DNA of 64,000 bases, taken from contig CATNEN010000001.1 in the NCBI GenBank assembly GCA_950097015.1, forward strand, positions 16,182,001-16,246,000, in the 5' to 3' direction. This document shows positions 15,422 through 53,174 of the stretch, one piece after another. A model generated the notes under the pieces. It was not told the origin of the DNA. It ran no database searches and saw only the letters and a list, made by a program, of their open reading frames with translations. Position 1 is the stretch's first letter, and each line of letters opens with the position of its first letter. Source of the stretch: Macrostomum hystrix (taxonomy: Eukaryota; Animalia; Platyhelminthes). The position numbers were made by a program, and so were the translations under genes.

Positions 15422-15440
15422 CTCCACCTTCGCTCACTTT
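15422..15440 (-). other. Polypurine tract
   Basis: Minus strand aaagtgagcgaaggtggag abuts the 3' LTR. Confidence 0.75.
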
Positions 15441-16169
15441 CACGTAAGACACTTACGTGCCTACTGACAGTAGTAGCGGGGTGTCTCGAGAATCGAGGGG
15501 ATAAATAAAAATTACCTACAACATACTGTAGAGAACCCTAGGAAGAATTCCGCTAGAGAAGAAATCCTAATGCGTACGTACGTACGGCTATAAATAGATT
15601 GGTGCGAGAGTATAAACGGTCGGCGCCCCTAGCGACTAAGGGATAGAGTCTTGAGGGGAGGTGGGTGCGCATTCCGGTCGCGGCGATGTTGTTCTCGTTG
15701 CCCAGGGGGTGCCTCGTCCCGGCTCGCCTTCTTCTCCAGGTGGCTGCAGCTCGTCCCAGTTCTCCCTGCCCGGCTTGGTCTCGGTTGCGCAATCCTGGGA
15801 GGCCCCGGCCGTCTTCTCCTTGAGTCCGAGGGGTCCGGCCGTGCTCTGCCCAGGTGGGTCCAGGTTGTTCAGCCCGTTTGCGCCCTTGCCGATCCTGCTG
15901 CCGGGCCTTGGTAGCCTCTGATTCGCCGCGCGCCCGGGTGTTTACAGCTGGCCGTGCCCGAAAATGTTCGCCGGGCTGGTTGCCGAGCCGTTGCGCGCGG
16001 TCCAATTGGCGCTGCAGCTGGTCGCAGCCGGAGAAACCCGCTGCTCAGGCCGCTCAGTTACTCTGTTGCCGGCCGCGGTATCTCCTCACCGAAAAGATCA
16101 AGGCCCCACTAACTAAACTACAACTATGGCCCCCTTACTCATGGAATTTCCCACAATCCTTCCCGAGCC

Positions 16170-16225
16170 TTCCTATTGGCTGGCGCCCCGGCCACCAAAA
16201 CCCCTAAACAAACTATTATAAAGAA
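16170..16225 (+). promoter_or_regulatory. Putative promoter of the antisense gene
   Basis: attgg (reverse CCAAT) near 16176 and tattataaag near 16214, about 80 bp upstream of ATG 16295. Confidence 0.5.
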
Positions 16226-16294
16226 CCACTTGATGCTCCATTAACTTCAGGCCTGTTATTTTTTGTAAAATCTCTGTTCATTTACTAATCGAAA

Positions 16295-17005
16295 ATGCGC
16301 CCAACTAACGCTGGCATTGTGCCTCTTTACGAAGCTGCTGACATGGCCCTGCCGCCGCCACCTGGAGAAGAGAGGTGAGTTACATTGCTTCCACTCGGCC
16401 TCCCAAGGCCGGTTATTGAGGGGCGATAATGAAATGGTTGGATAATAATTAGACTAGCTAGGATAATTATAGCAGTTCCCGGCACCCCCAACCCGATTCT
16501 TATCTATGACTGATCTTAACCCGAACCCAGATCCCTCAGCCCGCTAAGTTGAGAAATCCCAGTGAAACCCTAAATTAGCATTAGATCGAGTTTAATTTGT
16601 ATAAAAATTTCGTGAATTTGCTATCACCGTGATTGATTACCACCGTCCTGCCCTCCTACTTCCAGAGATGTCGTACCGCAGCCACCTACACGGCTTACCT
16701 TCGTCATTAGTAAGTCACCATGAATTGATATTTAACGCTTCATTCTATATTAGCCACCATTTGATCTGATTTCCGGGTCAAGCATCACCGAAATTCCACG
16801 CTAACCCTCAGCCGTAGTTGCTTAACTACTTCCTTCTTAATAAAAAAAATCCATCCCATCTCCCGCAGACTTTGACGTGGCGCCCAGCCGTCTCGCGGCT
16901 GGTGAGCTAAGCGAGGTCCTGGTGGGCCCCATGGGCTGGGCCGCGGCGGCCGGCCTGTTAATGGCCGCAGGAATGATCATAATGGCTCGCCTTCGCCGGC
17001 GCTAA
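16295..17005 (+). CDS. Predicted 3-exon 86-aa protein with C-terminal hydrophobic helix and polybasic tail; join(16295-16374,16666-16709,16869-17005)
   Basis: Donors GTGAGT and GTAAGT, pyrimidine-rich acceptors ttccag and ccgcag, phases 2 and 1 join in frame: MRPTNAGIVPLYEAADMALPPPPGEERDVVPQPPTRLTFVINFDVAPSRLAAGELSEVLVGPMGWAAAAGLLMAAGMIIMARLRRR. Confidence 0.75.
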
Positions 17006-18132
17006 CGAAAGGCACAGAGAAAAGAAGGTGCCACCGGTGGTTGGTACAATTTTTATAAAGACGACTGCCAGAGCCCCCTCCCCTCTGTTAATAACCCAAT
17101 TCTACCTGACACGCATTTCCCCACATTTATTCAGTGCCTAATCGTTAATTTTTTTCTTACCTTTCATTAAAATTTGCCTACTTATCATTGCTCACCACAA
17201 CCACCTCCTTTGCTTATTATAGAAATTGTACATAAATATATGCATTTATTCAGTGTGGAAATTGGTGTGTGCCGTTTACATGATTTCTCTGGCTGGGTTT
17301 CCTTGATTGAAAAGAACGGTGTTATTCATACTTAGAAAGCCCCAAAGGACAACGCGTCATTCCCAGTTTACATCTAAAGCGAGCTCCCTCAATAATAATA
17401 AGGTGGACATGGAACTAATTTGAAAATTTACAACAGAGAGGCTTGCTTAGGTGCCCGCAGTCTAGCTGGCTCATCCGCGTAAACAACCCTGTCCTTTTCG
17501 CTGTGCCCTCACATTCACTTCTCACCTCCCTTAGAAAAGGAGCCACCATTGAAATAGCTCGTTTCCTCCCGAACCAATAAGAAAGCTTCTCTCAACCTGA
17601 GCTAAAAGCCTGTCAGTTCCTTGTTCAGCCACCCACCTCATTCCAAACTTAGAGTGCCCATCATACCACCCCGCTCACTTTGGCGGGTTGGTATCCCTCC
17701 TAATATAGAAATTCGTCCCCAGATGAACCAACTCCACGGCCCACCCGAAACAAAGCGATATAGAGGGTGCCATTTACAATGTGGTGCGAGTAATATTAAA
17801 TGTCTAAGAAAAGAAGGGTGCACGCCCTAGTCTGCTGCAGTTAGAAATTATCTCAAGCGAAAAGTTTACTAGGGGAATTTCACCCCACTATGCATGTTTT
17901 TGGGTTTTTGACTAAAAATTATAAGAGTTTTTAGAATAAGATTTTTGTGCCAAGACGGCTTTAAAAGAGAGAAAGGAAAAGCATGCACAGTAGGAAGAAA
18001 AGCAAGAGGTGTGCGGTGCGAGCTGTTAATAAAGGGAAAAGGATGGAGAGAACAAGGGAAGGATTTGGTGGGTAGGGCTTTCCATAGATGCTTTTTCGCG
18101 CATTATCGTGCCCTTACTCGGATCCTGGGCCC

Positions 18133-18717
18133 CTATTCCTCGCCTCCATTCTTGATGGGAGTACTCCCTACCAGGCTCTCGCCATCATCTTCCCCTTCCA
18201 TCTGCCTTACCATTTGGCCGAGCGTGCTGTCGCCTGGTGGCAGCTCCTCGATGGTCGATGCTTCTACTGCCCAGCTTCTCCATGGCGTAGAGGCTAGTCC
18301 GGAAGATTGCCTCCAGACGGCTTCGCCAATCCGCGATGTTACCAGCTGGTGCTCGAGATCCCACCTGCCAGGGATCCGGGTAGCCTGTAGCCAGGACATA
18401 AGGGCTTCGGGCACTGCCATGCCCCAGTCTTCTGGCGGGCTGTATTCGGGCCACCGGAGATTCCAAGGCAGGGCCTCCTCGTCCTCACCTCTTGGCGGGC
18501 TCGGGTCTCGCTCTTCGACCCATGCCTGCGCCAACCACCGGGCTTCGGCTAGCCTGCATGCCAGGGCGAGATCTACTCCGGCCTGTGCCGCACGGCCCAA
18601 CGCAGGGAGTAGCCACAGGCGGACCATAATCCATGTCCTCCTGCCGGCCAGCTCTCGCCGATAGTCGGTGGCGACCGTCTCCAGCCACCAGGCCACAGTG
18701 ATGCTCAGGCCAGCCAT
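18133..18717 (-). CDS. Orphan 194-aa Trp-rich ORF3 of the gag-pro element
   Basis: ATG ORF downstream of protease, preceded by a long polypyrimidine tract and AG acceptor at 18790-18791. Confidence 0.65.
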   Translation of the reverse strand: MAGLSITVAWWLETVATDYRRELAGRRTWIMVRLWLLPALGRAAQAGVDLALACRLAEARWLAQAWVEERDPSPPRGEDEEALPWNLRWPEYSPPEDWGMAVPEALMSWLQATRIPGRWDLEHQLVTSRIGEAVWRQSSGLASTPWRSWAVEASTIEELPPGDSTLGQMVRQMEGEDDGESLVGSTPIKNGGEE

Positions 18718-18846
18718 GTCGACAATTTTTGTTAAAATGAACTGACTGCGTCCCTTCTAAACTTCCCGGCTCCTCCACTAACCTCCAGTCTAAATATCCA
18801 CAAGGGGGAGAGGGGGGGAAGAAAAGGGGAGGGGGGTTCCTCAGCC

Positions 18847-19392
18847 CTAAAAGGCAGGCTTCCGCCTGAGCGAGAAGGGAATAGACTGGTTGTAAATGAT
18901 TAATTGGCGCGAGTCAAAATCAAGGATGGCATGGTGATGAGCCAACCAGGAGGCGCCTAGAAGGGGAGAGCAGTCGCCCTCGACCACTAAGAATAGCGTG
19001 TCCAACGCTTCGGCGCCAACCTGCAATTTGACTTTGACTTGCGCCTGTGCAATTATAGGGGTGCCATTATATGCGAATAAAGAGAATTGAGGGGGTTCGA
19101 AATGATAATGGGAGATGATGGATGACATCGAGCCCGGGAGCACATTCACCATTGACCCAGTGTCGATCAGGAGGTCAAGGGGTGCTCCGTCCAACTCCAA
19201 GGCGACCCACACCTCACTGAGCTTCTCAGAGCGGTTGGGGCGGGTACGCACTCGGGTGGGGACTCGGCCGAGTGAATTCACTCGGACTTCGATGAGGGAG
19301 GCATCAACGGGGGGGCCTCGATCGCCCGAGCTGCGTGAGGCGCCTCCGGATAATCGGGCTGCCTCCAGTCGGCGGCCCCACTCCCGTTTCCC
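18847..19392 (-). CDS. pro: Retropepsin aspartic protease, read by -1 frameshift from gag
   Basis: LLIDTGS active site and LLGASWL motif; slippery G GGA AAC at 19386-19392 in the correct phase; stop follows the protease domain directly. Confidence 0.9.
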   Translation of the reverse strand, partial: GKREWGRRLEAARLSGGASRSSGDRGPPVDASLIEVRVNSLGRVPTRVRTRPNRSEKLSEVWVALELDGAPLDLLIDTGSMVNVLPGSMSSIISHYHFEPPQFSLFAYNGTPIIAQAQVKVKLQVGAEALDTLFLVVEGDCSPLLGASWLAHHHAILDFDSRQLIIYNQSIPFSLRRKPAF

Positions 19393-20351
19393 GCGGCATA
19401 GTTCCCACGGTACTTCTTCCGCGGCCCCATTGCTACCCTGGGGTACCACTGGTGCCCGGACAGGTGCGGATGAGGCGGGCGGGCCGGGGTTGGTTGTGAT
19501 TCGCGCAGCTGCCGCGTGACTTCCGCGAGCTGCTGGGAAACTTTGGCCAATTCCTGGGCCAAGTGCTGCTGCTCACGGCGGACGGCTTGAATCTCACCGG
19601 GGGGTTCTTGCTCCTCGGCTAGCCCGGCCCTGACCTGGCGCACTCGGCGACGGGGGTCGCGCTCAGCGGCCATCTCAAATGCCTGGGTGGCGGCGCGCAG
19701 CTCAGCGGCAGCCGCCTCTACCGTGGCGAATTCTATCCGCATCATGGGCGCCAACACCTCCGGAGGGGCCGTGATGCCTTCTAGGAAGGAGGCCAGGAGG
19801 GCTTGTTCAAAGGGTGGGCCGCGGCCATTGGGGTTGACCTGGGTGGCCACAGATCGCAGGCGGTCAGCGAACGAGGCGTATGACTCGCCTCTGTCCTGCT
19901 TAAGATTGCGCCCGCAAAGTAGCCGGGCATAGGGTGTGCAGGCGCCGCTGAGGGCCTCGGTCAGGTCTTGCACAAACCGCGGGTAGGTCACTCGGCGCGG
20001 TAGGCTCATGGCCTGGGTCAAGGGTTCGCCCCCTAAGTGAGCCAGGAGGGTGAGGATTTTCTCCTCCTCCGTCTCAAGACCCTCGGCCTCGACTTTCAAA
20101 TTAAACCGGCGCAGCCAGCCGGGAAATGAGTCCTTCGCCGACTCGAACGGCTCTAAAGCAATTTTTACTCGGTGGGTCCTAGCCCGTCGCGGCTCTAAGC
20201 GCTCCATCAGGGAGGCTAGGCGCTCCACTGGGTCTGCCGGCTGGACTGCCGCAGTTGCTGGGGGTTCGGCTCGCGCTGCTGCTGCAGCGCGGCCTCTCGG
20301 TGGGCGGGCACTGCCAACGGCCTCCACCACCTCATCCTCCTGGTCAGACAT
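19278..20351 (-). CDS. gag: Ty3/gypsy-type Gag (357 aa from MSDQEDE), no CCHC knuckle
   Basis: Capsid-like motifs PFESAKDSFPGWLRRF and LKQDRGESYASFADRL, followed by a coiled-coil-like stretch. Confidence 0.85.
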   Translation of the reverse strand: MSDQEDEVVEAVGSARPPRGRAAAAARAEPPATAAVQPADPVERLASLMERLEPRRARTHRVKIALEPFESAKDSFPGWLRRFNLKVEAEGLETEEEKILTLLAHLGGEPLTQAMSLPRRVTYPRFVQDLTEALSGACTPYARLLCGRNLKQDRGESYASFADRLRSVATQVNPNGRGPPFEQALLASFLEGITAPPEVLAPMMRIEFATVEAAAAELRAATQAFEMAAERDPRRRVRQVRAGLAEEQEPPGEIQAVRREQQHLAQELAKVSQQLAEVTRQLRESQPTPARPPHPHLSGHQWYPRVAMGPRKKYRGNYAAGNGSGAADWRQPDYPEAPHAARAIEAPPLMPPSSKSE

Positions 20352-20794
20352 GTTGACTACAGAGGAAATGAGGATTTTGCGAATTAAGAGGGGGGGTTTT
20401 GTCGCTAAAGCAACACTGGGGATGAGAAAAAGTGAGCTAAACGGGGTGCTGCACACGGCAGTGGCCGCGGAGAATGAGCAATTGAAAAACCGGCCCTCGC
20501 GAACAGAGACTGCGATGCAGCGGCCGAGAAAGCGATAAAGGAAAAACTGGTAGGAGAGAAAAAAAGGCCCGGGGCCCTGGCTAGCTCTACTTCCAGCCTT
20601 GGCTTCCGACAACTGCTTGCGCGCACTCGAACTTGGGACATAGGAGTCTAGGTTTTAACTTAGCACTCATTCAGCAACCCTATAGCGGACTGTTACACTA
20701 TAGGTACGGCGGGGCCAGTACTACTGCTGGCAGCGCCTGCAGCAGCCTATCGCCCTACCTTGGAAAGTACACGACTTCAATAAGTTACTCAAAG

Positions 20795-21331
20795 AAGGCT
20801 AATCCCCGATTCGCTCAGAGGGCCCTTCCCGGGGGGGTGGCCGGGGGCTTCGCCTCTGCGATTTACAAGGCTGGGAAGTCCAGGTATTTTACACCTGGAG
20901 CCTCGCTTCGGCTTAGGAGTCCGTAGGGCAAAAGCCCGGTTACTGCGTTTAGACTACCCTTCAGAGAGCTTCTTAGAAAAGGACGTGCCGACCGATTTCT
21001 AGCCTATCCCCAAGGTCGGCAGTTTCAGGGCGCGGGCACGGGTGTCGTTAGACTCCCTCAGGGTCCCGACCCTTAACTATTCCGCCCCTAAGTTAGACTT
21101 AGTCAAAGTTACGTGGCACCTTCAGAATCAGGTACCTGAAAGCGGGCCTTGCGCGACGCCCAAGGAAAGGCTAATCCCCGATTCGCTCAGAGGGCCCTTC
21201 CCGGGGGGGGTGGCCGGGGGCTTCGCCTCTGCGATTTACAAGGCTGGGAAGTCCAGGTATTTTACACCTGGAGCCTCGCTTCAGCTTAGGAGTCCGTAGC
21301 TTAAGCCCGGTAACTGCGTTTAGACTACCCT
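20795..21331. repeat. ~165-bp direct repeat pair in the 5' leader (20795-20960 and 21167-21331)
   Basis: aaggctaatccccgattcg...tagactaccct occurs twice. Confidence 0.9.
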
Positions 21332-21685
21332 CGCCTAGAACAATCACGCAGGAAAAACCCCGCAGACAGTCCCCGACTCCTGCAGTAGCCACATAACCCG
21401 AAGACACTCTAGCATGAAGTCTACTCACACAGCCTACTCATAGTAGAAAGTCACTAATCAGAATTTTTAGAAACTCTAACAAAACCTTACATTAAAGTCC
21501 GAATCAAATTGAAACTGTTCAAAGAAAATTAATTGACAGTTACTCGGAACTGAAGTCCAGTCTCCCGAGATAAGATTCCGGCATACGGATAATGAAATCT
21601 AGAAGGAGCCCTTACGGCTAGCTACTACAGAAATCTGCAGCGCTACTAACAATTGAAATTCAAGTTCGTTTCGCGCCCTTTCTAG

Positions 21686-21705
21686 ATCCCACCTCGATGC
21701 CACCA
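21686..21705 (-). other. Primer binding site, tRNA-Leu-like
   Basis: TGGTGGCATCGAGGTGGGAT, 1 nt after the 5' LTR. Confidence 0.75.
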
Positions 21706-21706
21706 T

Positions 21707-24034
21707 TGATATAGCTGCGGGTTTGCAATCCGATGATCTGTCCTCGTGAAGGAAAGGAGTGTGGGGATGGCGATAGAGTCAGAAGTCGTACCGCAAAGTC
21801 TCGCGAGTTGCCGCGGAAAGAGGGATGAAGGGAGAGATGAAGGGAGAGACAGTGGATGCAGGGAGTGGTCCTCTCGGCCTCAGGCTGGCCAGTCCCACTC
21901 AAACCATAGGCCACAGGCATGACTGCCGTGCCTACCCCAAGCAGTGCTCGAAACCGGCTAAAAGTCTAAATAGATGTCGGACTACCCGCAAGCGGATAGG
22001 ACAGGGCTAGGTAGCCTACTGCCATCAGTAGCATGTTCGTAACTGACTCCTAAACTCGGTAGCAGTGGTCGACTCGGCCTAGGCTCTTGTCTTAGAAATG
22101 CGGAAAGGCTATCGGCAAAGCGGAAAATGATCTAGGGTAGCGCCACCACCCAATGCGCCTACGTTGCCACCGCAGACATTTGGGGACTTGGGTCCCCGGA
22201 GCTCGCAGCTCCTAGTTTGTCACACAGATCTTAGACAAGCCGAAAAATAGAGCCTTCTGTAACTTCCGTTTTAGACTAGGGTGAAAACCCCAGAATGGAT
22301 CGAGACACGCCTCACCAGGGGATTCCTGAATTTGCGCTACAGTGGTCTAGAAAGGTGGTACTCAGAACCTGAAAGAGAAACCCATAGCCAGAATCCTACT
22401 CATGGGACATCAGACACATTCTGTACATTAGGCTGCAGCCTACACATTAGATAACTAGCAATCCGAGTCTGTGTGAGTTGAGGAAAACAGAGGCAGGAGA
22501 GGTTAAGCTGAACACTGGCTGAGTGATTATGCAAGCGTGAGATTAATTGAACATCACTCTCGTTCCCGTGGCCGCAGGTGCGAAAGGGGGACAGCGGGAA
22601 AACTCCATTGGAAAGGGAGCTCGACACGTACCTTGAACCCACCCAAGAGGGAGAAGGAAAACCGGCCAAGGATTCCCCCAACCCCCTGGAAAGGAAAATG
22701 CACATGCTACCCTCCGCATTTACTTACAAATCCCTAGCTCCATATCCATACTCTCATGCGCGCTCACAGTTGTCTTCCTGCCGCAGCTTTCAGCTCGGCA
22801 TCACCAGAGCCCACCCCCTAATGAGTTAGCCACTCATGGTAGAGGGCTGTCTAATGAGAAAATAAAGAGGAAATAACAGCATGGCGGAAAAGATTTAAAT
22901 TGTTATTAAGTTTGGCCTAATGTTTTAATAATTGGCGAATGAATAGTCCGTATATTAAGCCTCGAATCCTAAGCCCGTGCCCACTAATAGCCGCCTAATT
23001 AACAGAAAGCCCCTTAGGAGCAATAATTGCAAAAACCACTGCGCGGGTTACTTAGCTGAAGTCGCTTCGGCTGCGTGCTGCAATCCCGTTGTTCTCGGGG
23101 AAGAGGATGGGGTAAGACAGCAAAGGCCGGGAAGGGAAAGGTGCGGCGAGTCGGCAGGGGCCAACACGCTTGGAGCTCAAGGCTCAATTTCAACGGCTCA
23201 CCTAAAGAGGTGGATCGCGCTCAGGGGGAATGGGGACAGGCAATGGGCCTGCGCTAACTGTGGAGCTATGAACTCTAGGGTCTATGCCCTAAGTGGGTCC
23301 GGAAAGGTGCTCTGGGTCCGGTGGGAGTCCGGCCCGGCAAAAGTAAGTCCGGCAGGGGAGAAGGGGAAGAGCCGGTGGGAGAAAAAGGTTGTAGAGGGAG
23401 CAGCGCCGCGCGCTTGCTTAAATAGGCCTTGCAGCACGCCAACCCCGACATCCATCAAAGCAACCCACATTCGCGCCCGCCTGTCAACGGGGAATCGAAG
23501 CGACGACAGGCCGCCCCAATTGCCCAATGAACCGGCGGCGGGAAACGACAGGTGCTCATCGAGAGCAGCCATCGGCAGACGGCCAACAATTGTTACTCCG
23601 CCGGGACAAAGGAAGCGCAGGCGCCGACCTGCCTACAGTGACATTTACAAGTATCTACAAGGGAGGAGGTCATAAAGTCGAGCTGGGCTCGAATACTGTA
23701 AAGAAGAGGGGACATGAAGAATTTAATGATCACTCATAACGCGCGAGTGAGCCCCTATATCTGATCGCGGTTTGGAGGGGAATTATGACCTAAACTAGTT
23801 CATACAGTAACATTATGGCCGCGATCAGTCATTCCTACGGGGAGTCTAGGCAACTCCGGAGAGAGAGGATTCGACAGCTACTTGATTCACCGCCGCCTCA
23901 AAACCCGGCCCTAAGATTAATGATCTTGTTTTGTGGCCAGCTGCTATGTGGGTCGCAATTATTAGTTACTTAAAAATTTGAAAAATTATGCTGGCTCACA
24001 TTCCCGCTCGATTCCCGCAGCACACTCCACATCA
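21707..24034 (-). repeat. 5' LTR (2328 bp)
   Basis: Near-identical to 13098-15421; minus-strand TATTTAAG at 23417-23424 is also kept in the divergent LTR near 63490. Confidence 0.95.
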
Positions 24035-24914
24035 CTCAGAAGTTCGAGCGTCATTAAACTGTTGCCGTACTGTTTAGTTTAGCGGCATAATCACTGCAAT
24101 ATAACTGTTCGGCGTGAGAAATAAATTCGAAAATAAGTTTTTACTAATTAATAGTCACAACAGGCATTTTGTACGAAAGAAAAACTCAAAGTGCCTTTAT
24201 CAGGTAAAGGCGGGCTCTTTTATTATTGCTCTTTTTGCTTTCCCATTTTTATTTCTGTAATTTACTGTTGGTCTGTTCAATTTCACTCTTCTTCAGTTGC
24301 TTTGCATTTAGTACCCTGAAGATATTTAATTCTACAAAACATTCCGGTTTGAGTGCAATCCAAATCCTATCCCAGGCCTATCCCATATGTATACAGATAC
24401 TTGGTGTTTACTTTTTTTCTCCCGCTATGCATCCTTTTACTATTTATACAGAAAATTAAACGTTCTTTGTGCGGCAATTAAGCAGCCACAGTCAGACAAA
24501 TTCTTTATACTGAACTGCGTTAGAAATTTATATTTATTTTCGTTGACTCTTACTTCTTTAATTTCGAAATTTAAACGTTATGCAGCAAAACATAATGCTG
24601 ACACAGCTAGTGCTTTCACCTACGATCGAATCTTTTGGGATCGTTTTCCTGAAGGCGGCTCATCTATGTCTACAATACTTAATAAGTTAATAATACTGAG
24701 CTGGCACAACTGAGCCAAAAAATCTTGTCAACTTGCGCATCAGAGGCCGCACTAAGTGCGCAGTTGCTGTTAGAATTTAAGAAATGAATCAGCGCCAAAA
24801 TTCATAATGCCGGTCGCCCTCACAATTGAGCGACCTGCTTTACGAGCGTAAATCGACGACTCTCCAAATCACTCCGCCATTATGTAAACACATTACCATA
24901 GAATCACATACCAC

Positions 24915-25117: not shown

Positions 25118-27937
25118 GGGATCATTGTTAACTGGGGGATCATGATCAACTGGGGGATCTTTGTTAACTGGGGGATCATTGTCAACAGGGGAGGTACATT
25201 GTCAACTGTGGGATCATTGTCAAATGGGGGATCATTGTCAACTGGGTGATCATAATCAACTGAGTGATCATTGTCAACTTGTGGATCATTGTCAACTGGG
25301 AATCATTGTCAACTTGGGGATCATGGTCAACTGGGGGATCATCATCAACTGGGGGATACTTGTCAACTGGCTGATCATAATCAACTCAGTGATCATTGTC
25401 AACTGTGGGATCATTGTCAACTGTGGGATCATTGTCAACTGGAAGATCATTGTCAACTGGGTGATAATTGTCAACTGGGGAATCATCATCAACTGGGGGA
25501 TCATCATCAACTGAGTGATCATAATCAACTGAGTGATCATTGTCAACTGGGAATCATTGTCAACTGGGGGATCATTGTCAACTGGGTGATAATTGTCAAC
25601 TGGGGAATCATCATCAACTGGGGGATCATAATCAAATGGGGGATCATTGTCAACTGGGGGATCATTGTCAACTGTGGGATCATTGTCAACTGGGGGATAA
25701 TTGTCAACTGAGTGATCATAATCAACTGAGTGATCATTTTCAACTTGTGGATCATTGTCAACTGGGAATCTTTGTCAACTTGGGGATCATGGTCAACTGG
25801 GGGATCATCATCAACTGGGGGATCATCATCAACTGGGGGATCATCATCAACTGGGGGATCATCATCAAATGGGGGATCATTGTCAACTGGGTGATCATAA
25901 TCAACTGAGTGATCATTGTCAACTTGTGGATCATTGTCAACTGTGGGATCATTGTCAACTGGGGGATCATCATCAACTGGGGGATACTTGTCAACTGGCT
26001 GATCATAATCAACTCAGTGATCATAATCAACTGAGTGATCATTGTTAACTTGTGGATCATTGTCAACTGGGAATATTTGTCAACTTGGGGATCATGGTCA
26101 ACTGGGGGATCATTATCAAGTGGGTGATCATTGTCAACTGGCGGATCATGGTCAACTGGGGGATAATTGTCGACTGGGGGATAATTGTCAACTGGGGGAT
26201 CATCATCAACTGGGGGATCATCATCAACTGGGGGATCATTGTCAACTGGGTGATCATAATCAGCTGAGTGATCATAATCAACTGAGTGATCATTATCAAG
26301 TGGGTGATCATTGTCAACTGGCGGATCATGGTCAAGTGGGGGATAATTGTCGACTGGGGGATAATTGTCAACTGGGGGATCATTGTCAACTGGGTGATCA
26401 TTGTCAACTGAGTGATCATAATCAACTGACTGATCATTGTCAACTTGTGGATCATTGTCAACTGTGGGATCATTGTCAACTAGGGGATCATCATCAACTG
26501 GGGGATACTTGTCAACTGGCTGATCATAATCAACTCAGTGATCATAATCAACTGAGTGATCATTGTTAACTTGTGGATCATTGTCAACTGGGAATCTTTG
26601 TCAACTTGTGCATCATTGTCAACTGGGAATCATTGTCATTGTCAACTGTGGGATCATTGTCAACTGTGGGATCGTTGTCAACTGGAAGATCATTGTCAAC
26701 TGGGTGATAATTGTCAACTGGGGAATCATCATCAACTGGGGGATCATCATCAACTGAGTGATCATAATCAACTGAGTGATCATTGTCAACTGGGAATCAT
26801 TGTCAACTGGGGGATCATTGTCAACTGGGTGATAATTGTCAACTGGGGAATCATCATCAACTGGGGGATCATAATCAAATGGGGGATCATTGTCAACTGG
26901 GGGATCATTGTCAACTGTGGGATCATTGTCAACTGGGGGATAATTGTCAACTGAGTGATCATAATCAACTGAGTGATCATTTTCAACTTGTGGATCATTG
27001 TCAACTGGGAATCTTTGTCAACTTGGGGATCATGGTCAACTGGGGGATCATCATCAACTGGGGGATCATCATCAACTGGGGGATCATCATCAACTGGGGG
27101 ATCATCCTCAAATGGGGGATCATTGTCAACTGGGTGATCATAATCAACTGAGTGATCATTGTCAACTTGTGGATCATTGTCAACTGTGGGATCATTGTCA
27201 ACTGGGGGATCATCATCAACTGGGGGATACTTGTCAAGTGGCTGATCATAATCAACTCAGTGATCATAATCAACTGAGTGATCATTGTTAACTTGTGGAT
27301 CATCATCAACTGGGGGATCATCATCAACTGGGGGATCATTGTCAACTGGGTGATCATAATCAGCTGAGTGATCATAATCAACTGAGTGATCATTATCAAG
27401 TGGGTGATCATTGTCAACTGGCGGATCATGGTCAACTGGGGGATAATTGTCGACTGGGGGATAATTGTCAACTGGGTGATCATTGTCAACTGAGTGATCA
27501 TAATCAACTGACTGATCATTGTCAACTTGTGGATCATTGTCAACTGTGGGATCATTGTCAACTGGGGGATCATCATCAACTGGGGGATACTTGTCAACTG
27601 GCTGATCATAATCAACTCAGAGATCATAATCAACTGAGTGATCATTGTCAACTTGTGGATCATTGTCAACTGGGAATCATTGTCAACTTGGGGATCATGG
27701 TCAACTGGGGGATCATTTTCGACTGGGGGATAATTGTCAACTGGGGTTCATTGGTAACTGGGGGATCATTGTCAACTGTGGGATCATTGTCAACTGGGGG
27801 ATCATCATCAACTGGGGGATCATCATCAACTGGGGGATCATCATCAACTGGGGGATCATCATCAACTGGGGGATCATCATCAACTGGGGGATCATCATCA
27901 ACTGGGGGATCATCATCAACTGGGGGATCATCATCAA
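25118..27937. repeat. 18-bp satellite (GGGGGATCATTGTCAACT consensus) with ~1243-bp higher-order duplication
   Basis: About 155 monomers by length, with occasional 17-bp variants; variant order repeats at offset 1243 (25540 vs 26783, 25755 vs 26998). Confidence 0.95.
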
Positions 27938-28316: not shown

Positions 28317-28710
28317 AGCACAGACCAAATTAATAAGATAAGGCTTTCCTTCCGTCTGTGGTGGGGAGACCCACATGCATTACGTTCTAAATATTCTTAT
28401 CAGTTTTTATTTGAGCTGCTCCCTCCTCTTTTGGCTGTTCAAGTTCTGTGACTCACTTCAATTGGTTTTAGATCCCTAAAAGACTGGGGGCGCGAGTCAG
28501 TTCCGAACTTCCGCAGAACTCTGCCGCTAAAAATACTCTTTTATTTGTCTCGAAAAATTAAAATATGTACAGATTTGTACAGATATGTACAGTCTGTTAG
28601 GAAAAGATATTTGCTGAGTTATAAAACTATTAAATTATATTTACTTGCTTGATGATTCTGGAGCATCCTGTTTGCTTTATTACTTTATTATGCCAATGAG
28701 TACGAGTACA
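28317..28710. repeat. Diverged direct repeat of 30518-30772, flanking the SET gene
   Basis: Shared agcacagaccaaat...ataagataaggc, tctgtggtggggagacc and caatgagtacg blocks. Confidence 0.75.
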
Positions 28711-28891
28711 TTAAGCGATTAAAAAAATTAAGACACAAATTCCAAGAATCTTTTCAGAAAAGTAACCATTTTCTCAATGCGCCATTGCTTTATTTGTAAT
28801 AAAGAATATACATAATTAAACATGATTGTTACATGATTAAAGATTTAGCAAAATAAACTAAGCGACGAGTCATAATAACATGCGTGTCTTT

Positions 28892-30346
28892 CTAGTCTCG
28901 AAGCCATGGGTTCTTCACAAGATCATCATTATCGATACCTCTACCAGTCGTATAGTCGAACGTCAGTTCTGTGCCCGTTGCAACATATTTATTTGTCACG
29001 AAATAAATGACGGGTCGCAGCCCCTGGTCGATAATAATGAGCTTTGCTTTACAGTTAGGAGCAGTAGAAGAATGGTTCAGGTACCTTCCCAATCCGTCAC
29101 TGTTGCTGGCGTCAATTACCCATAATTTGCCGTTAACTTTAAACTCAAATAGCATCCAGTCGGAGTTAGGTTCACATTCGCGTCTAATCGCTTCCTGTTC
29201 GTTCAGCAGGATTCCGGCGAATTGATCGACAAACGCCCCCGCAGCTAGGTTGATTCTCGCAAAGGCGCCCAGTCCCTTCTCGCCCGCAGGTGCAACAGCG
29301 ATCGCGGTGTCTGTCTTCCCGTTGATGCCCAGTATGCGCTCGGTTGTATCTCTAGTGGATGTCGGGGGACGATAATCGACACTAGATCGGCTGAGCCTCT
29401 GAGCCGGCCTCTTCTTAACGGTCGGGTCAGGCAAAGGCTGTGCGGGGGTGTAGTTAAACACGATTTAATTTGTTTTTTTTTCATGCTTCTAAATCGCCCT
29501 TTTCTCCATCGCCTCTCTCACATTTCACTTGCTTGCTGACATCTCGTTTGCATCTCATCTCACTTAATCGGCCTCTACTTTTTACTCCCTCTTAATCCTC
29601 TCCTCTCTCATTAAGTTACTCAAAGAAAAACGATTACAGAAAAGGAAACTTTGCCCCAAAATCAGCTTTATACAGCCACACCATCTAACCGCACTCAATT
29701 GATTGACGAACCTCTAATGGACATACTGCTAGGGCGATTCGTAAAGATTGATCCACGCGTGAGTTGCCTTCGCCCTCTTCCTCGCTGTCGGAGAAGGATA
29801 ATTCGACGTTGACCTCAGGGACAGCGCGTTTGTTAGTCTGAAAAATTAAACATTTTTAATATTTTCTCATGCAGAAACATGAGAATGTGCATAACAGAAA
29901 TTAAGACGCGGGGCCTACATGCAAAGATTATAGTGGGAGATTATAGTTGCAGAGGGGAGTAGGAGAATACTTAGAAGGACAAGTTATTGAACAGGCAGGT
30001 AACATACATTATCATTCACCTGAAGTTCAGCCGTTGATGGAATTGCGCAAGAATGTCGCTTGAATCGGACTATAAGTCCCGGGCCAGTTTCGCAGGTCAC
30101 CCTGACCTGATCAGCGCGTTGGGAAGTCTGGCAATGTATGCGTGCAATACGTGAGTGTACAATAGAAATATAACAAAAGAATAAAGGAAAAGTTGTAAAC
30201 TTTTTACAATCTCAAATAATTTGCTGCCTCTGAATTCTCACCTCATTGAGGGCGGTCGATACGCGCTTTAAACGAATTTTTAAACCGGGCACTGCTGTGT
30301 CTGCACTTCCGCAGTCAGATATTAGCCACTGATCACTTATATCCAT
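28892..30346 (-). CDS. SETD8/PR-Set7 (KMT5A)-like SET-domain protein, predicted 289 aa; join(30346-30242,30127-30020,29837-29727,29437-28892)
   Basis: GEKGLG, GRYLNHS, ELTFDY and C-terminal NPWL motifs; three upstream stop-free phase-0 exons with GT/AG; minus-strand AATAAA near 28790. Confidence 0.85.
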
Positions 30347-31163
30347 GAAATATTAAATACTTTTGTGATGAAAATAAATCGCAAAATAATTTCCTGTGTA
30401 GTGTGTAATGACTCTGAACGGGTTTGGGTGGGACCGATCAAGCGGGGTGGGGAGGGGAGCACACAGACTTTTTATTTCTAGAAGTTTCTAGAAGTTGTTA
30501 TTTCTAGAAGTCTCTGGGAGCACAGACCAAATGGATAAGATAAGGCCGGCTTTCCTTCTGTCTGTGGTGGGGAGACCAGTCATCAGTTTATCAGTTTTTT
30601 TTAGCTGCTCCTTCCTCTTTTGGCCGTGCAAGTCCTGTGACCATGCAGAAGAGCTCTACTAGCTAGATGTTTACCGTTTCTAGCAGTCACTTCAATTAAT
30701 GGGAATTAAGTGATTCTGGAAGCATGCTTGTTGCTAAAACACTAAGCTTCTAAGTCAATGAGTACGCGTACAATAAAAGCAATTACGAAGATAATGACAC
30801 GCTTTCGAATGCCTTATAAAATTAAATTCGATTTAAGAATTTCGTAAAAATGTGCGAAAGAACAAAGTTTTGGCATTAAAGTGTCAACGCGTTCTTCAGG
30901 CAACGGACGGCAAGAAAAATGGACTCCTGTTATCGGAGACCACACACCGCCTCAAATAAACCTTATCGCTTATCATTCCCGATTCCCGGTATTTATTTTG
31001 CTATTCGGACTTTGCTGCTCAATATCAGTATACAGTTTACAGGGATACAGGGAGTATACAGTTTTTTACATTTGTACATTTTTATGTCTGTAGTCAAATT
31101 GATGCAAAACATTAACAGTCAAAATTACATTTGCTGACAAGGGTGGAACAGAATGCGATTCCA

Positions 31164-33919
31164 CTAATCAACACCAGAGAGAGGAATCACCAGCCATGCC
31201 TTTCCGGTCTTGCGCGGGAACAGAAAGCACTTCCTGTGGGGAGTGCCAGTAACAAAAGATCGTGTTTTACAATAGACTCCGATACCCAGTTTTGAGGACG
31301 GATATGGATAGTCATACAAGTCCTTTTGCAGCGACAGAATATTGCCAGTTACTTGGTCACCAAGAACAGAAGTAATCCGAACAACTGAGCCATTCACGAT
31401 GCAACAGTTGTCGGGCATCTTAACAGAGTACTTAATGGGCTTAATTGGGTTGCTGACTAGTAAGTCGCGAAGTGAAAGCATTTGATTTAGCAAGTAAGAT
31501 GATACAAAGCGCGTTACTCGAAGGCGACCCTTTAAGTGAGAGAGGTAGTTCTCATATGGAAAGGCCGAAAAGTTGGACACATTTCCACGTTGCCTCGCGT
31601 ATTGAAACAAGTGCAAAAGAACGTGAGCATTGTGAGTCATGAAACTGTTGCCGTACAGTTGAGCTGCGTCATACACAAAAAGTTTCAAGGCAGATTCAGC
31701 GGCATCAAGAAGTTCAGGCTGTGGGCTATCAGAGCAAAGAACATAACAGGCAAAGTGAAATAGAAGAAAATGCCTGTACAACTCTGTTGGCAGAAATTTG
31801 CGAAAAAAATACGGGCCCACATACAGAGTCCACGTGCGGAACTCGCTGGCTTTGAAATGTCCGAGTTCTCGGTCGATTCTCCGAGGGCGTCTTTGGAAAT
31901 TTGTCGGTGTATATATAGCACGTGATTCGGCAAAATCAGAAAGTGCGGAAACTTGATCCGGCCTAATTTTGCGCCGCCGTCCGTCATCCACCGCAAAGAG
32001 GAAGGTGAAAAGACGCCTAGCGACGCCTAGAAAGAGCAGGTGCATTGGCTCCGGTGGGCAAGCATCAGGTAGTTGCAAGCCTGGCAGTGACAGGAGCGGA
32101 CTTGGTTCATGCCGCTGGTTGGATTCCCTGCAGTAGTTGTTGGCGATAAAGACTAGTAATAATAATAATTTATTACACCTGCCCCAATCGACAGCACAGC
32201 CGCAGCTAATGCGCGGCGCATCTGAAGGCTGCGTACGGCTGTTCAGTCCATGGACTGGGAGGACGCCATACACCCACCTTCAATTACCCCAGCTAATGCT
32301 GGTACCTATTTAACAGCTGGGTGAACCGAAGCACTGCAGAGTTAAGTGTCTTGCTAAAGGACACAAATTTTTTCAGTGGAGTCGGGAATCGAGCTATTGT
32401 ATATTATTGTATATTGAATATTGTATATTTTATATTGTATATAGCAAGTATGTGAATAATTTTTTAGATTTAAAAGGACAGCCATTATATAGACAGTCTG
32501 AATCGGAATCACATTTCTTTAGTTGCCATATCCCGATACAGCCATTTGCATATTTATATGATTAACTGATTCACGTATTAAGACAACGTCAGGTCAGGTT
32601 CGTAGACATGTATAAAACATGTCAGATATCCTGCCATGTAGGCATATACAGATGTATAAGCTGGTATACAAAATTCGCAAAAGCACACACACATACACAC
32701 AACCCCATGCACACACACGCACCTATTAAACCGGTAATCCTCAGCTGTGCGACACTCTCCGACTTCGACAGGGTAGACTATTCGCCGGTCGACCGTCTGG
32801 GCTACCACTCTGCAGTAGGGGCAGCCGTGATGTGCGTTGTGGCCCAAAGTTGCGGTAATGAAGGTCCGCGCTGGCGTGTCGCAAATGAACGTGATGTTCC
32901 TGATGTGGATTAGCACCCCATCAACTTCGACAAAGTCGGTCATGAAGGACTGCAGCTCATTGATGAAGTCGGCCAGGTACTCGGTAAGAGGTGGTTTACC
33001 CAACCCAGCATACACAGCAACAGGAAGTGGGCGACAGAATCTCGAAAACTTAACGATAATAGGCCATGCCGCGTAGCTTGACGAATTGTAAATCGGCATT
33101 CCGTCAATGCCAACATCAATGTCCAGTTCCAACCTTGCTCTGTCATTCTGGGTGGCTTCCGGATTTCCAAGATCCAACATGCCGCCGCGAATCAGGAACG
33201 CCAGGTTCGAAGCAATACCGATGTAGGAAAAGTGTCCACTACCCATGGTGTACTTTTGTATTTGTACTGCTTCAGCCGAAGGTTCTTTGCGCAGACGGTG
33301 CACTGTTCTTGCGACCGGCAGGCCTCGGCAGACTAGAGCATTGAGCAGGAACTGCATCGCTCGATGTGAGATGTTGTAACGAACGAAGAATATTAGAAGC
33401 TCCTCATTCAGGCTCTCCAATGATGGCTTTGCTGTTTGGCCTGGGTCCCCATCTTCCGCATCTGTTGACAAGTGATCGGCGTAGTCGAACTCATCAGCCT
33501 CACTTTCGTCGAAAGCCTCGTTAATAGCTGATAAATGCATGGGGTCACAGGCATTGACACCGGCACTGGTAGAATCAGGCCGCGAATCCTCAGGTGGAAT
33601 GAGGCTTGCGCCATCTGCATGGGAAGATGCAACCTCCTGATTGAAAATAAAGAGGAAAAAAAGAAGACGATGAAACTGTGCATAAAATTCGAGGCAATCA
33701 ATCAAACCTATCACCCTGTCAATCCTGCCTCTGTCTGCCCCACACTCGTCAAATTTCTTTACAAAATTGCATGAAACTTAAATAGAATCTCAATAAGAAT
33801 TGAAAACTCACTTGGTCCATTACTACATCACTGTCCGCAAAGTCAAGTAGGTTCTTTGTGAACCAATTTTGAAACTTTCATCGTGGGTTCGTGTCACCTT
33901 TAGTCCGTCTTTTAGACAT
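31164..33919 (-). CDS. EnSpm/CACTA-type transposase, ~661 codons; join(33919-33812,33636-32723,32127-31164); in-frame TGA at codon 14
   Basis: GIDGMP...WPI, ICDTPAR...GHN...GCPYC, EPMHLLFLGV, FKASEFRTW, HNAHVLLHL and SAFPYENY motifs; intron phases 0 and 2 are consistent. Confidence 0.88.
32157..32395 (-). mobile_element. SINE in transposase intron 2
   Basis: Same family as 1575-1800, with B-box remnant and (taa)n tail. Confidence 0.8.
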
Positions 33920-34054
33920 TTTGTGAGTAAGTGATGGATATGAAAGGCTAATAGATGGGATATATTGAAAAAATTGCTGTAAATTAACCCGGGAAAATAA
34001 TATTACTAGAGCCTAGAGGTCTGTAAATTACAATTCATTAGTTTACTAAAATTG

Positions 34055-34285
34055 CTAGTTTACTTGCCTTTGTCGAGACTCGAGTCGAGTTGGCTCTCAG
34101 CTCGGCTCGGCTCGGCTCGCTCTTGGCTCGGATTGGCTCTGTCGGATTCCGCGCGGCGCGGGCAAGTTTTCATTGGCTTGTGTCCAATAAAGCTTTGAGA
34201 AGGCGGGGACCCACCTGTGGCATATCTGCACGTATGGCTCATATATAAATAGATGATCAATCGTTGTTGAGCAATTTTATAGTTG
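34055..34285 (+). promoter_or_regulatory. Promoter cassette, copy 1 (between divergent transposase and ORF 34353)
   Basis: attgg boxes, aggcgggg GC box, tatataaa at 34242; duplicated at 39939-40145. Confidence 0.65.
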
Positions 34286-34352
34286 CAACTTCTCCCACCA
34301 GATCACTAAAATTCCCTCAACTAACTTCCTTCAACCTTCCTTCAACAAAAAA

Positions 34353-34805
34353 ATGAATAGCAACAGCAGCGACAGCAACAGCATCAACAGCAGCCAATGC
34401 CATGTCCATGGCCTGGATGTTCATGACGATGTCAATGAGTTCAAATTTCATTTGTTCCCGGCACAGTTCCGGGCGAACTTTCTGGCCAATGCCACCACCA
34501 AACTGGATGAGGCCATCCAGTCATGCCTCGTCGCTGCGGAAGAGATGGCGGCGACAGTGGCCTGGACGCCCGCACGGCGCCGGGCACAGGACGCGCTGAA
34601 TGAAGCGACGCGTCTTATGAAGCTGGCCATGATTCGGATGGCCAGAGCTCGCCGCATAGCGGCGGGCCTGGACCCATATGTGAGTAGTCGCTTTTGAATA
34701 TTATTATTATTAGAATATTTATTAACGCATCTGATCTGATAACCGAGCTAATAAGCTAAATGAAACTGAAACCCATCTTTTATATCGCAGCCGGGCGTCC
34801 TGTGA
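34353..34805 (+). CDS. Orphan ~113-aa helical protein; join(34353-34679,34791-34805)
   Basis: aaaaATG context after a TATA box, GC-rich ORF, donor GTGAGT at 34680 and acceptor tcgcag at 34790. The unspliced ORF ends at 34697. Confidence 0.6.
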
Positions 34806-39193: not shown

Positions 39194-39938
39194 ATTAATT
39201 TATAAATAACTGTATTAATGTTGTGTTCAATATTTATGCACAAATACGCACGCGCACATTTTTAAATAAATAAATGTTTAAAAAATACACATTTACACAA
39301 AAAATACACAAGCCATAATTTTTCATCGCCGTCTTCAATTTTTTGTGTGCCACTGGCACTGGTTGGTTGGATTTCCGTATAGTTGTTGACTTGACAATAA
39401 GGAATAATATTGTATATATACAATACATAGTATTAGTATGTATGTGAAACCTTATTGAGAAATCAAAGGACATCAGGACAATTAAATAGTCTGAATCAGG
39501 ACAGTCTGAATCGGAATCATAGTTCTTAATCATAGTCGTACAAATCGTGTATATGAGAGACGGTTACAAGACAGCATACATTGTTGATAACGCATTCCTA
39601 ATTATTTAGCTATTTAGTTAAAAAAAACACATGAAAGAAATTAATTCTGTTGTCAGCCGCTGTAGGCTCAGCATATACATAGTAGGCGTGTCTAGCAATT
39701 CTAGTAATCATGAGTTCTGAGTTCTGACCGGCAGATTGTAATGATATCATTGCAACGATTGCTAGATAAGCTAGACTATCATGCATATTGTAATATTTGC
39801 ATCGCAACGGAAAAAAAGAATCACCATCAACGCTAGTAGATGGTGATCAACGATATTAAACGCAAACTACAGTAAATACCCGGTAAATTACAGATACTTA
39901 AGGTAAGTAAATTACAATAAATTCAATTACTACAAAAG

Positions 39939-40145
39939 CTAGTTTGCCTTTGTCGAGTCAGCCGTTCGAGCCGTTCGCTATTGGCTCAGCTCGCTCTAAC
40001 CGGATTGGCTCTGTCGGATTCCGCGCTTTTGCATTGGCTCTTGTCCAGTAAAGCTTTGAGAAGGCGGGGTCCCAACGGAGCATATCTGCACGTACGTAGC
40101 TCGTATATGAATAGTTGATCAATCTTTGTTGAGCAACTTTATAGT
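39939..40145 (+). promoter_or_regulatory. Promoter cassette, copy 2
   Basis: Homologous to 34055-34285; ends about 70 bp upstream of ATG 40212. Confidence 0.65.
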
Positions 40146-43350: not shown

Positions 43351-44384
43351 CTGCATATTTTGATTCTGGTGCTCACGCTTCTCTGCTCGTCTGTTGCCTT
43401 TTTCTGCTTCTGTTCACTGATGCTTCTGCTCATTTTCTTCTGTCGCAAAAATTTTGTCTAAGGACAAAATTTTGTAGTTTTTGTGAGGTATAAAAATTAT
43501 TCGTCTTCCTTTCTATTATTTTCCTACATGCTTTAGAAACGCGCTTCGTTATTTACGTAGAGTATAGTAAGTATAGTACACAATGATATTTCTTGCTATG
43601 TATTCAAATTAGTATTTTTTACCCCATGTCTATGCTGCCTGTTGTGCGTTGTGTTACTGCAAAGGCATTTTATACTTTTGATGTGCTGTAGACTGCTGAG
43701 CAGCCTCCAGGCAATCTGAGAGTCAGGCTGTTCTAGGTCTGTGGGAGGGCTAGGGTTGGTAGTTAGTGTTCCCCGTGCACTGTCACTTCCGCTCGCCACC
43801 CCCCCTTCCGCTGTCTCTCTCTTTCCAGCTCTGTCTGCGCACTGAGTCATATTGCACACCATGGTGCAATCGCTTAAGTTCGGAAGAAGACTGGCATAAC
43901 ATCGCTCAAATGCTCCTACTATGAGTAGAGCACAGTCCGACGAATCCTTGAGAGGGTGTTAGTGCCATGGTAAACACAACTTCTGTACGAATATGCACGT
44001 TTCTTGTCTCCAGTCTTCATGCCGTTTAGCGACACTTCAGCTTTGCTTCGGTTCGCTTTCTTCTTGCATCTTATTGGCAAACAAACCGTATACTGCGTTT
44101 AGAAGCAGAGTATACCGGGTGTTTCAGAGCAAGGTCAGATAAGTTAATTATAGGCTAACTTAGAGCAATCCGAGGAAACTAGGTAATCTAGCCTGACTAC
44201 CGGATTGTTCCTCTGCCAGGAAGCATCTGCGTTGAGGCCGGTATAAAAATCTCTCTCGGAATCTAGTTCCTGTCTTGGTTATTTTACCAATTGTGTGTGC
44301 CACGCTACCACAGGTACAACATTGGTGGCAAAGCGGTGTGATTCGAGTTAGCCTTTTTACTCATTCACTGCGGAAACGAACGCC

Positions 44385-45674
44385 ATGTCCCAAGAGGAAT
44401 TAGATTCAGAGAGAGAAGAGAGGCAGCAGGTAGCCCGGAGCAAGGAGTCTCGCGGTGGCTGTGCGCTGCAGGAAGCTGCTGGCAGGAGTCGGTGGAACGG
44501 CCGCGGCAACGGCTGTGTCGGCGACGGCGAGGACGGCGAGAGCGACTTCGGCGACGACGACCAGTCTGGCGGCGAGGACGACGACCGGGGCGCAGCGGCA
44601 GCGGCAGCAAGGCGACGACGACCGAGGCTGGACGACAGGGCGACGGCTGACCTGGTGTACCGGATGCTCAACCTGATGGAGAAGCAGGTGGAACAACAAC
44701 AAGGTAGGACGGCGAAGATTGCCAAGTTTTCTCGGGGTCAGGACGTGCATCTGTGGGTGGACGCGTTTGAAGCGTATTGCGCCCGGGCTGCGATTCGCAG
44801 TTCGGAGACACGCAAGGCCCTTCTACTCGACCACCTCGATGTACAGTGCCTGAATGCCGTCCTCAGGATGAAGCTGCCCGAAGAGCTCACGTATGCCCAG
44901 TTCAAGGAGCGTATTGTGGAGCGATTCGCGCCGCTGAGTAGCCCTGAGGAGTACCGAGACGAGTTCCGCAATCGCTATCAGAAGAAAGCGGAAACGCTTG
45001 ATGACTATGCTGATGCGTTGCAGGGACTCGGTGAGCAGGCCTACACCAACCTTCGCCAGAGAGACCTGGACTATGAGTTGGTCGACCAGTTTATTAAGGG
45101 AGTTCGGACTTCGGTTGAGAACCGCAAGCACCTGCTGCGGACTCGCCCTAGAACACTCCTGGAAGCTAGGCGAGAGTTGAAGCGCCTAGAGGTGGTCGAC
45201 GAGGCAGTCCAGAGGGCGAAGGATGGGCCGGCTCGGATGGTGCACGGCGAGGATGGGGACCTGAATGCGCGGCCGCCACCGCAAGGTGTTACCGCTGCGC
45301 TGAAGGGACTCGAATCGCTGATGACCAAGATGGTCGAGGTCCAGGGTCAGCAGCTGCAGCATCAGCAGAAGATGCAGGAGATGCTGGTCCAGGCGCTCAG
45401 CCGACCACAAGGAGCCGTGCAGCAGGAAGGACCGGCGCCGCCAAGAGGGGCATGCTTTGGTTGCGGGAAGTTCGGACACCTGAGGCGTGATTGCCCGACG
45501 AGGCCACCCAAGCCGCGTTACGAGCACCACACTCGGGGGTACCCGAGAGAGCAACGGCAAGAGCCCAGGCAGCAGTCCGAGCTGCAGGCCCAAGGCACTC
45601 AGACGTCGGGAAACGAGACGGCGAGGAGCACGGACGGCAGTGCCCCTCGCAGTCCAGTTCCTGGACGGGCCTGA
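44385..45674 (+). CDS. gag: Gag, 429 aa
   Basis: YQKKAETLDDYADAL major-homology-like region and CFGCGKFGHLRRDC knuckle. Confidence 0.93.
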   Translation: MSQEELDSEREERQQVARSKESRGGCALQEAAGRSRWNGRGNGCVGDGEDGESDFGDDDQSGGEDDDRGAAAAAARRRRPRLDDRATADLVYRMLNLMEKQVEQQQGRTAKIAKFSRGQDVHLWVDAFEAYCARAAIRSSETRKALLLDHLDVQCLNAVLRMKLPEELTYAQFKERIVERFAPLSSPEEYRDEFRNRYQKKAETLDDYADALQGLGEQAYTNLRQRDLDYELVDQFIKGVRTSVENRKHLLRTRPRTLLEARRELKRLEVVDEAVQRAKDGPARMVHGEDGDLNARPPPQGVTAALKGLESLMTKMVEVQGQQLQHQQKMQEMLVQALSRPQGAVQQEGPAPPRGACFGCGKFGHLRRDCPTRPPKPRYEHHTRGYPREQRQEPRQQSELQAQGTQTSGNETARSTDGSAPRSPVPGRA

Positions 45675-50722: not shown

Positions 50723-50796
50723 TTCCTATCCTCCGAATCAGGCCGAGGAAGATCCCTTGGAGAACAAGAAAAATAAAATAAAATAAAGGAAAAGGA

Positions 50797-53145: not shown

Positions 53146-53174
53146 GTCCGCCGGACGATGTTTTTTACACCGGG
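53146..53174 (-). repeat. Right TIR of copy B, with gtccg/cggac subterminal motifs from ~53040
   Basis: Reverse complement cccggtgtaaaaaacatcgtccggcggac; followed by TA. Confidence 0.9.

Follow-up and report, generated by a model that had tools for sequence, protein, structure and literature searches.

Tethering of mobile elements through BET proteins is known for MLV and reportedly also occurs with piggyBac. In the available portions of the literature cited here, peptides that bind the ET domain fall into two classes, namely NSD3-like motifs, which follow the order hydrophobic-basic-hydrophobic-basic, and BRD9-like motifs, of the form (hydrophobic/basic)-hydrophobic-hydrophobic-basic-(hydrophobic/basic) (PMC6375729). 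Residues 399–403 of the MLV integrase (IN), LKIRL, form a strand that pairs with the acidic strand of ET (10.1101/2020.09.21.306696). Of 135 similar motifs tried on peptide arrays, only 29 bound, so that the prior for any new match is modest, and merely charged motifs bound ET non-specifically (PMC6375729).

SETD8 (KMT5A, PR-Set7), an H4K20 monomethylase, has a C-terminal SET domain that lacks pre- and post-SET cysteine clusters and ends in PWL. KMT5A-like expansions with many divergent paralogues have been described in Hydractinia, Hydra and sea urchin (PMC10368294), with no transposon attribution in the available part of that source. SET domains are also found as cargo of DNA transposons, in HarbingerS and MuDR elements of Phytophthora (PMC12730594, citing Repbase Reports), in the Phytophthora proto-Helentron-Pi, where the domain was likened to Clr4 (PMC4067079), and in PAG2 of a red-algal Plavaka element of the EnSpm lineage, together with a DNA methylase domain (10.1101/2025.02.11.637652). 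For these oomycete and red-algal cases, the accessible text of the sources gives no targeting mechanism and describes no animal element, SETD8-type domain or ET motif. Neither an animal transposon-borne SETD8 nor a transposon accessory enzyme with an ET motif appeared in the titles and abstract openings covered, a set without Repbase Reports and subscription journals; further comparison literature is PMC7442819 and PMC3529403. EnSpm/CACTA elements usually end in 5'-CA..TG-3', which is not universal, and target duplications in the CMCT clade measure 2–5 bp (PMC12730594).

We have analyzed a window of 64,000 nucleotides from Macrostomum hystrix (contig CATNEN010000001.1 of GCA_950097015.1, positions 16,182,001 to 16,246,000), and all coordinates below are positions in this window. 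A preliminary description had assigned to a SET gene in it three hidden N-terminal exons with two tandem motifs resembling ET ligands. The results place this gene inside a giant transposon and favor the first of the two motifs as a candidate ET ligand.

A SET gene between the ends of an EnSpm/CACTA-like element

The window contains a unit of 48,109 bp (5066–53174) bounded by 31-bp TIRs that match each other at 26 of 31 bases. The left TIR (5066–5096, forward strand) is preceded by a TA at 5064–5065, and the right TIR (53144–53174, reverse strand) is followed by a TA at 53175–53176. The insertion point is an internal TA of a previously resident, older copy of the element. Two copies of the empty site are found in the window, one at 12852–13005 on the forward strand (near 12913), where left flank, TA and right flank run unbroken, and one at about 61668–61794 (near 61729), to which the joined flanks also align unbroken. 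At least three copies of this giant family are thus nested at the locus. A further left end was noticed at 54468, 1.3 kb downstream of the element. When two Gypsy elements, an element with long LTRs and a mariner are subtracted, about 22 kb are left, including a 2.8-kb minisatellite.

An EnSpm/CACTA-type DDE transposase gene lies on the reverse strand at 31164–33919 and comprises 661 codons in three predicted exons (33919–33812, 33636–32723 and 32127–31164). Its product is 35–36% identical to P0167–P0169 over about 600 aa, aligns with its relatives at the DDE-type residues and at the C(2)C and H(3)H motifs, and gives a weak DUF4218 match. Look-alikes in the Atlas were mostly arthropod clusters, some of them with Transposase_21 (47% and 17% of members), followed by Plavaka and RAG1. 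The transposase has an in-frame stop at codon 14 (33880) and a later Met at the end of its exon 1; the SET frame is uninterrupted. The DDE transposase, the C(2)C and H(3)H motifs, the TIRs and the 2-bp target duplication are shared with the CMCT clade of EnSpm/CACTA, whereas the termini (CCC..GGG) begin with CCC and not with the usual CA. The element is of EnSpm/CACTA type (CMCT clade), and its 2-bp TA duplication is like that of ESTA. Short transposase-like remnants occur at 24037–24100 and 53351–53400 (11-aa and 32-nt matches); they suggest that the element once had another EnSpm-like gene, now decayed.

The TIRs enclose the SET gene, which is 820 bp away from the transposase and is the only SET copy in the 64-kb window. 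No separate TIR/TSD pair bracketing it was found, so that the simplest reading is that the gene is cargo of the 48-kb element. A fused transposase-SET protein was absent from the eight longer transposase relatives. The preliminary description had spoken of a transposable-element enzyme, and the TIRs, the TA duplication, the empty sites and the adjoining EnSpm-type transposase bear this out.

Exon structure and splicing of the SET gene

The gene is read on the reverse strand. Exon 1 (30242–30346; 105 nt, 35 aa) runs from an ATG at 30346 to a GT donor and is followed by exon 2 (30020–30127; 108 nt, 36 aa), exon 3 (29712–29837; 126 nt, 42 aa), which contains an SDSEEEGE patch, and exon 4 (28892–29437; 181 aa and a stop), which encodes a SETD8-like SET domain. 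The introns are GT-AG and phase 0, and measure 114 nt (predicted intron 1, 30128–30241), 182 nt (intron 2, 29838–30019) and 274 nt (intron 3, 29438–29711). When joined by these coordinates, the four exons give a stop-free frame of 294 aa, and the introns are lower in GC (0.32–0.41) than the exons (0.47–0.54). The three phase-0 exons first proposed upstream of the SET exon are upheld by this frame and its GT-AG introns, and their peptides and the acidic patch read as originally written. Exons 1–3 gave no Pfam match.

Splicing was assessed on Logan contigs from two public runs, X1 and X2, neither of which is recorded as RNA. The intron 3 joint (29437/29712) is present in contigs of both runs and the intron 2 joint (29837/30020) in an X2 contig, which confirms the donor of exon 2, the acceptor side being predicted. 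Removal of intron 1 was seen in none of the X1 and X2 contigs; the sole contig covering exon 2, from X2, runs unspliced from 30020 to 30187 and keeps 60 nt of intron 1 (30128–30187). X2 also has a contig with intron 3 unspliced, a sign of DNA or partly processed RNA in the run, so that the retained stretch of intron 1 is indecisive. In a deeper X2 contig derived from a paralogue, the exon 1 donor (30242) is joined straight to an exon-3-like stretch, which is in frame and four codons longer, and exon 2 is absent. Exon 1 belongs to the transcript family, and the exon 2 donor works. Neither an exon 1–exon 2 joint nor any transcript with both motifs was observed among the contigs of the two runs. 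Of the three junctions predicted at the outset, the second and third were found and the first was not.

In exon 3, a Ser/acidic patch that includes CK2-type sites comes after VNVEL, an arrangement which we take to resemble a phospho-SUMO-interacting motif. The X2 paralogue contig retains the NVELS part. Upstream of the start codon, a repeat at 30519–30800 is duplicated 3' of the gene at 28317–28736 (pieces of 77% and 71% identity), and is promoter-like by position only.

The SET domain and its relatives

Exon 4 encodes a SET domain (Pfam PF00856, E 9.8e-13) with intact RxxNH and FDY motifs. In the structure model, which was predicted from a 10-sequence alignment (mean pLDDT 76), the linker part of exon 4 falls below a pLDDT of 50. 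A fold search of 48,161 chains returned human SET8 (1zkk) as the best match (Z 18.0, rmsd 2.7, 142 aligned), the next non-SET8 row having a Z of 14.9. On this model the fold is closest to SETD8, and the C-terminal PWL end is present, as are the C-terminal position of the SET domain and the lack of pre- and post-SET cysteine clusters. Unlike SETD8, to which it is about 29% identical, the protein is multi-copy, is encoded inside a transposon, has Phe at both specificity tyrosines and stands on a separate branch of a poorly resolved tree.

The two Phe residues were identified in an alignment with PDB sequences, at sites which we take to be Y245 and Y334 in SETD8 numbering. At the first site Phe is rare, with 1 of 154 other SET rows sharing it; at the second it is common (20 of 70 SETD8-like rows). 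EZH2 Y641F offers a parallel for multi-methylation or for a preference for pre-methylated substrates. Two active-site tyrosines restrict SET enzymes to monomethylation, according to the available text of PMC3874154. The double Phe thus predicts multi-methylation, a preference for pre-methylated substrates, or reduced activity.

Among the best 150 of 2,271 matches in 1.84 billion representatives, the closest single-domain relative was P0004 (43% identity in SET), and a Macrostomum lignano fragment, P0047, was 51% identical over 66 residues. A quick tree of 155 rows and 147 columns, with class labels set by regex and 68 of 151 forks open, grouped the three proteins (SH-aLRT 97) outside the main SETD8 group, so that the substrate is not fixed as H4K20. 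Another 80 metagenome and 6 viral loci matched the SET protein at 44% identity or less and were left out of the comparison. Ulp1, FLYWCH, zf-FCS/TRASH and zinc-finger-like domains are frequent in transposon proteins. Such N-termini (Ulp1 protease, FLYWCH, zf-FCS/TRASH or zinc-finger-like) are fused to the SETD8-like proteins P0064, P0087, P0005 and P0008. There is a hint in these sequences that transposon-borne SETD8 may be widespread.

Paralogue contigs are 85–87% identical to the SET gene, and in X2 divergent paralogues occur together with near-identical contigs. The changes listed cover 40 of 104 difference sites, and the 32 in exon 4 were used. Of these 32, the third codon position accounts for 22 (p 4.5e-5); 28 codons are changed, 18 of them synonymously. 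In this comparison of codons, the SET exon is shown to be under purifying selection. One listed change would convert the His of the NH motif to Gln in a paralogue, so that catalysis may be impaired in some copies.

Candidate ET-binding motifs in exons 1 and 2

The motif of exon 1, PGLKIRLKR (30263–30289, reverse strand), contains LKIRL, which is identical to the ET-binding strand of MLV IN at 399–403. It matches the NSD3-like four-residue core (LKIR/IRLK), and its LKIRLK stretches the hydrophobic/basic alternation to six residues. This six-residue alternation had a shuffle p of 0.0036 within the 153-aa arm, for a motif chosen post hoc. Other transposon ORFs (5,322 aa) did not contain it, nor did 48 SETD8-like arms (7,314 aa, from the 48 of 151 proteins that passed the filter), and it turns up at four more places when the window is translated in all six frames. 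The motif of exon 2, PGLIVRFKR (30056–30082, reverse strand), fits the BRD9-like (LIVRF) and the minimal NSD3-like (VRFK) consensus. Shuffling of the arm shows the former fit to be weak (p 0.13), and a four-residue match of the latter kind occurs in 9 of the 48 SETD8-like arms. Of the two tandem motifs originally proposed, that of exon 1 fits the consensus and contains the MLV string; the exon 2 match is weak and common.

The peptides of exons 1 and 2 are alike beyond shuffles (local p 0.0006, global p 0.00025), and the positions common to both motifs include hydrophobic ones (L, I/V, L/F). The likeness is limited to the core around PGL..R.KR, the N-flanks (p 0.65) and the DNA (p 0.28) being unlike. 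The duplication first assumed for these exons is therefore no more than plausible.

The closest full-length relative, P0004, has a different N-terminus in which the motif is absent; hence not all of the family shares it. Three sets of homologue matches, of one, of five and of the best 150 of 2,271 representatives, contained no close relative with an N-terminus. In the X2 paralogue contig, the exon 1 changes listed comprise five substitutions and two compensating indels, all upstream of LKIRLKR, and one of them replaces the Gly before LKIRLKR with Ser. An unchanged LKIRLKR core in the paralogue is compatible with the changes listed, and P0004 does not share it.

Other patterns were searched for in the 294-aa protein. 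The preliminary description had allowed for a nuclear localisation signal, and here it fails in the classical sense: four patterns, presumably representative of the mono- and bipartite NLS consensus, matched nowhere in the protein and none covers the exon 1 motif. The seven-residue Taf14/YEATS consensus, with its four hydrophobic positions, gave no match, nor did PP1 RVxF and PIP-box patterns in what we take to be their consensus form. No match was returned for the exon 1 and exon 2 peptides among PDB sequences at E 10 or for the exon 1 peptide in the Atlas, blanks that are uninformative. Bromo or ET domains were absent from 79 retrieved proteins scanned, as was PF17035 from three viral records, and 26 loci matching the ET-motif pattern in viral contigs included none that was ET-like by eye.

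Proposed mechanism and alternative explanations

We tentatively propose, with a probability of about 0.4, that the one candidate motif of exon 1 docks on an ET domain. The LKIRLK strand would be added as a β-strand in the acidic groove of the ET domain of a host BET or other ET-fold protein, the N-terminal arm serving as a flexible linker. The enzyme would be tethered in this way to BET-bound, acetylated chromatin, as for NSD3, and would methylate a lysine there, most likely H4K20 by descent from SETD8 and probably past the mono state, since Phe replaces the two specificity tyrosines. The module was likely duplicated some time ago to give exon 2, which is optional and would contribute at most a second, weaker strand. 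The element might gain by having its copies kept transcribed, or by having repair or insertion shaped at active chromatin, and an anti-silencing role can be envisaged. Docking through two tandem motifs is distinctly unlikely, because the exon 2 match is common and weak and no transcript with both motifs was seen; one candidate ET motif is the stronger statement. The most far-reaching version, which we hold to be rather unlikely as a whole, is that an animal transposon captured SETD8, rewired its active site to higher methylation, convergently evolved the ET strand of a gammaretroviral integrase, doubled by exon duplication and splice-switchable, and hijacks BET to mark active chromatin.

The resemblance between exons 1 and 2 (p 0.0006) argues for selection on the strand and for no particular partner. 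The strands could be functional and bind something other than ET, such as nucleosomal DNA or the acidic patch, importin through a non-classical NLS, or another β-augmentation pocket, a reading that is somewhat unlikely and that draws on the Lys/Arg richness of both motifs. SETD8 itself uses basic N-terminal residues on the nucleosome. The non-specific binding of merely charged motifs to ET (PMC6375729, available text) points the same way; however, no classical NLS pattern matches the protein, the conserved positions include hydrophobic residues, a trait of ET ligands, and LKIRL is identical to part of an ET ligand whose structure is solved. It is unlikely that the motifs arose by chance in a linker that evolves fast, exon 2 decaying and mostly skipped or retained in unproductive RNA, and the enzyme being cargo without an ET tether. 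In favor of this are the lack of the motif in P0004 and of exon 2 in the paralogue and the missing exon 1–exon 2 joint; also, four-residue matches are common and six-residue ones arise by chance in non-coding frames. Yet only the motif core is alike between the exons, flanks and DNA having diverged, which is the pattern that selection leaves, and no listed paralogue change falls inside LKIRLKR.

The strands might also act in cis, by pairing with EVNVELSF of exon 3 or by sitting in the enzyme's own substrate groove as an autoinhibitory pseudo-substrate. We find this improbable, although exon 3 has an alternating acidic/hydrophobic strand resembling the ET strand and both motifs end in a Lys-Arg pair. 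For the whole gene to be a stray host gene or part of a smaller nested element is very unlikely, even though the window has a single SET copy and the element several nested insertions. Its position between the TIRs and 820 bp from the transposase, with no TIR/TSD pair of its own, speaks against this, as do the branching of the protein apart from canonical SETD8 and the divergent paralogues alongside near-identical contigs in X2.

Comparison with described systems

Exon 1 shares with the MLV integrase tail and NSD3 an alternating hydrophobic/basic strand. NSD3, as far as the available sources describe it, is likewise a SET enzyme whose flexible arm bears a motif of this kind. In exon 2, a V-R-V about ten residues before the motif recalls the spacing of the first hairpin strand (W-R-V) of MLV, a likeness noticed post hoc; exon 1, in contrast to MLV, has no Trp at that spacing. 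Unlike MLV and NSD3, the carrier here is neither an integrase nor a host gene but the accessory enzyme of a DNA transposon, with ET binding as a candidate property only. If true, the BET hook would be convergent with both, and would give a direct and testable example of a histone mark written by a DNA transposon by way of a host reader.

With HarbingerS, MuDR, proto-Helentron-Pi and Plavaka PAG2, the element shares the condition of a DNA transposon with a SET accessory gene. SET-carrying transposons are already known, and one with a SETD8-type domain and an ET-like motif would be a new form. Even without the ET link, a spliced and selected SETD8-like gene lies inside a bounded, animal-type EnSpm element. 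As in the KMT5A-like expansions, divergent SETD8-like paralogues are present, and here one such gene is placed inside a TIR-bounded element. This location is a possible explanation of the multi-copy KMT5A-like genes of hydrozoans and sea urchin as presented in the accessible part of PMC10368294. If SETD8 was indeed captured, such elements could explain SETD8-like expansions in invertebrate genomes.

Other features of the element

A pair of duplicated upstream regions, 33944–34283 and 39829–40145, is 72% alike and contains CCAAT- and TATA-like words. The pair precedes two unrelated ORFs (34257–34697 and 40203 onward) with no Pfam match, and a second duplicated upstream pair, 28317–28736 and 30519–30800, flanks the SET gene. 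Accessory genes may have been added behind copied promoters. No Rfam match was obtained between 24 and 44 kb. At 25118–27931, directly behind a SINE-like repeat and within the element, 156 copies of an 18-bp unit form an array.

An element with 2.3-kb LTRs, 99.6% alike, occupies 13098–24037 and appears again from 61909 onward. Its internal ORFs are gag-like and protease, with no match to reverse transcriptase, and it is possibly non-autonomous. A young Gypsy element lies at 43679–52700, with LTRs of 643 bp that are 99.8% alike. It has a third ORF of 318 aa (50782–51738), for which no Pfam match was obtained, and its RNase H and integrase are separated by a long repetitive insert.
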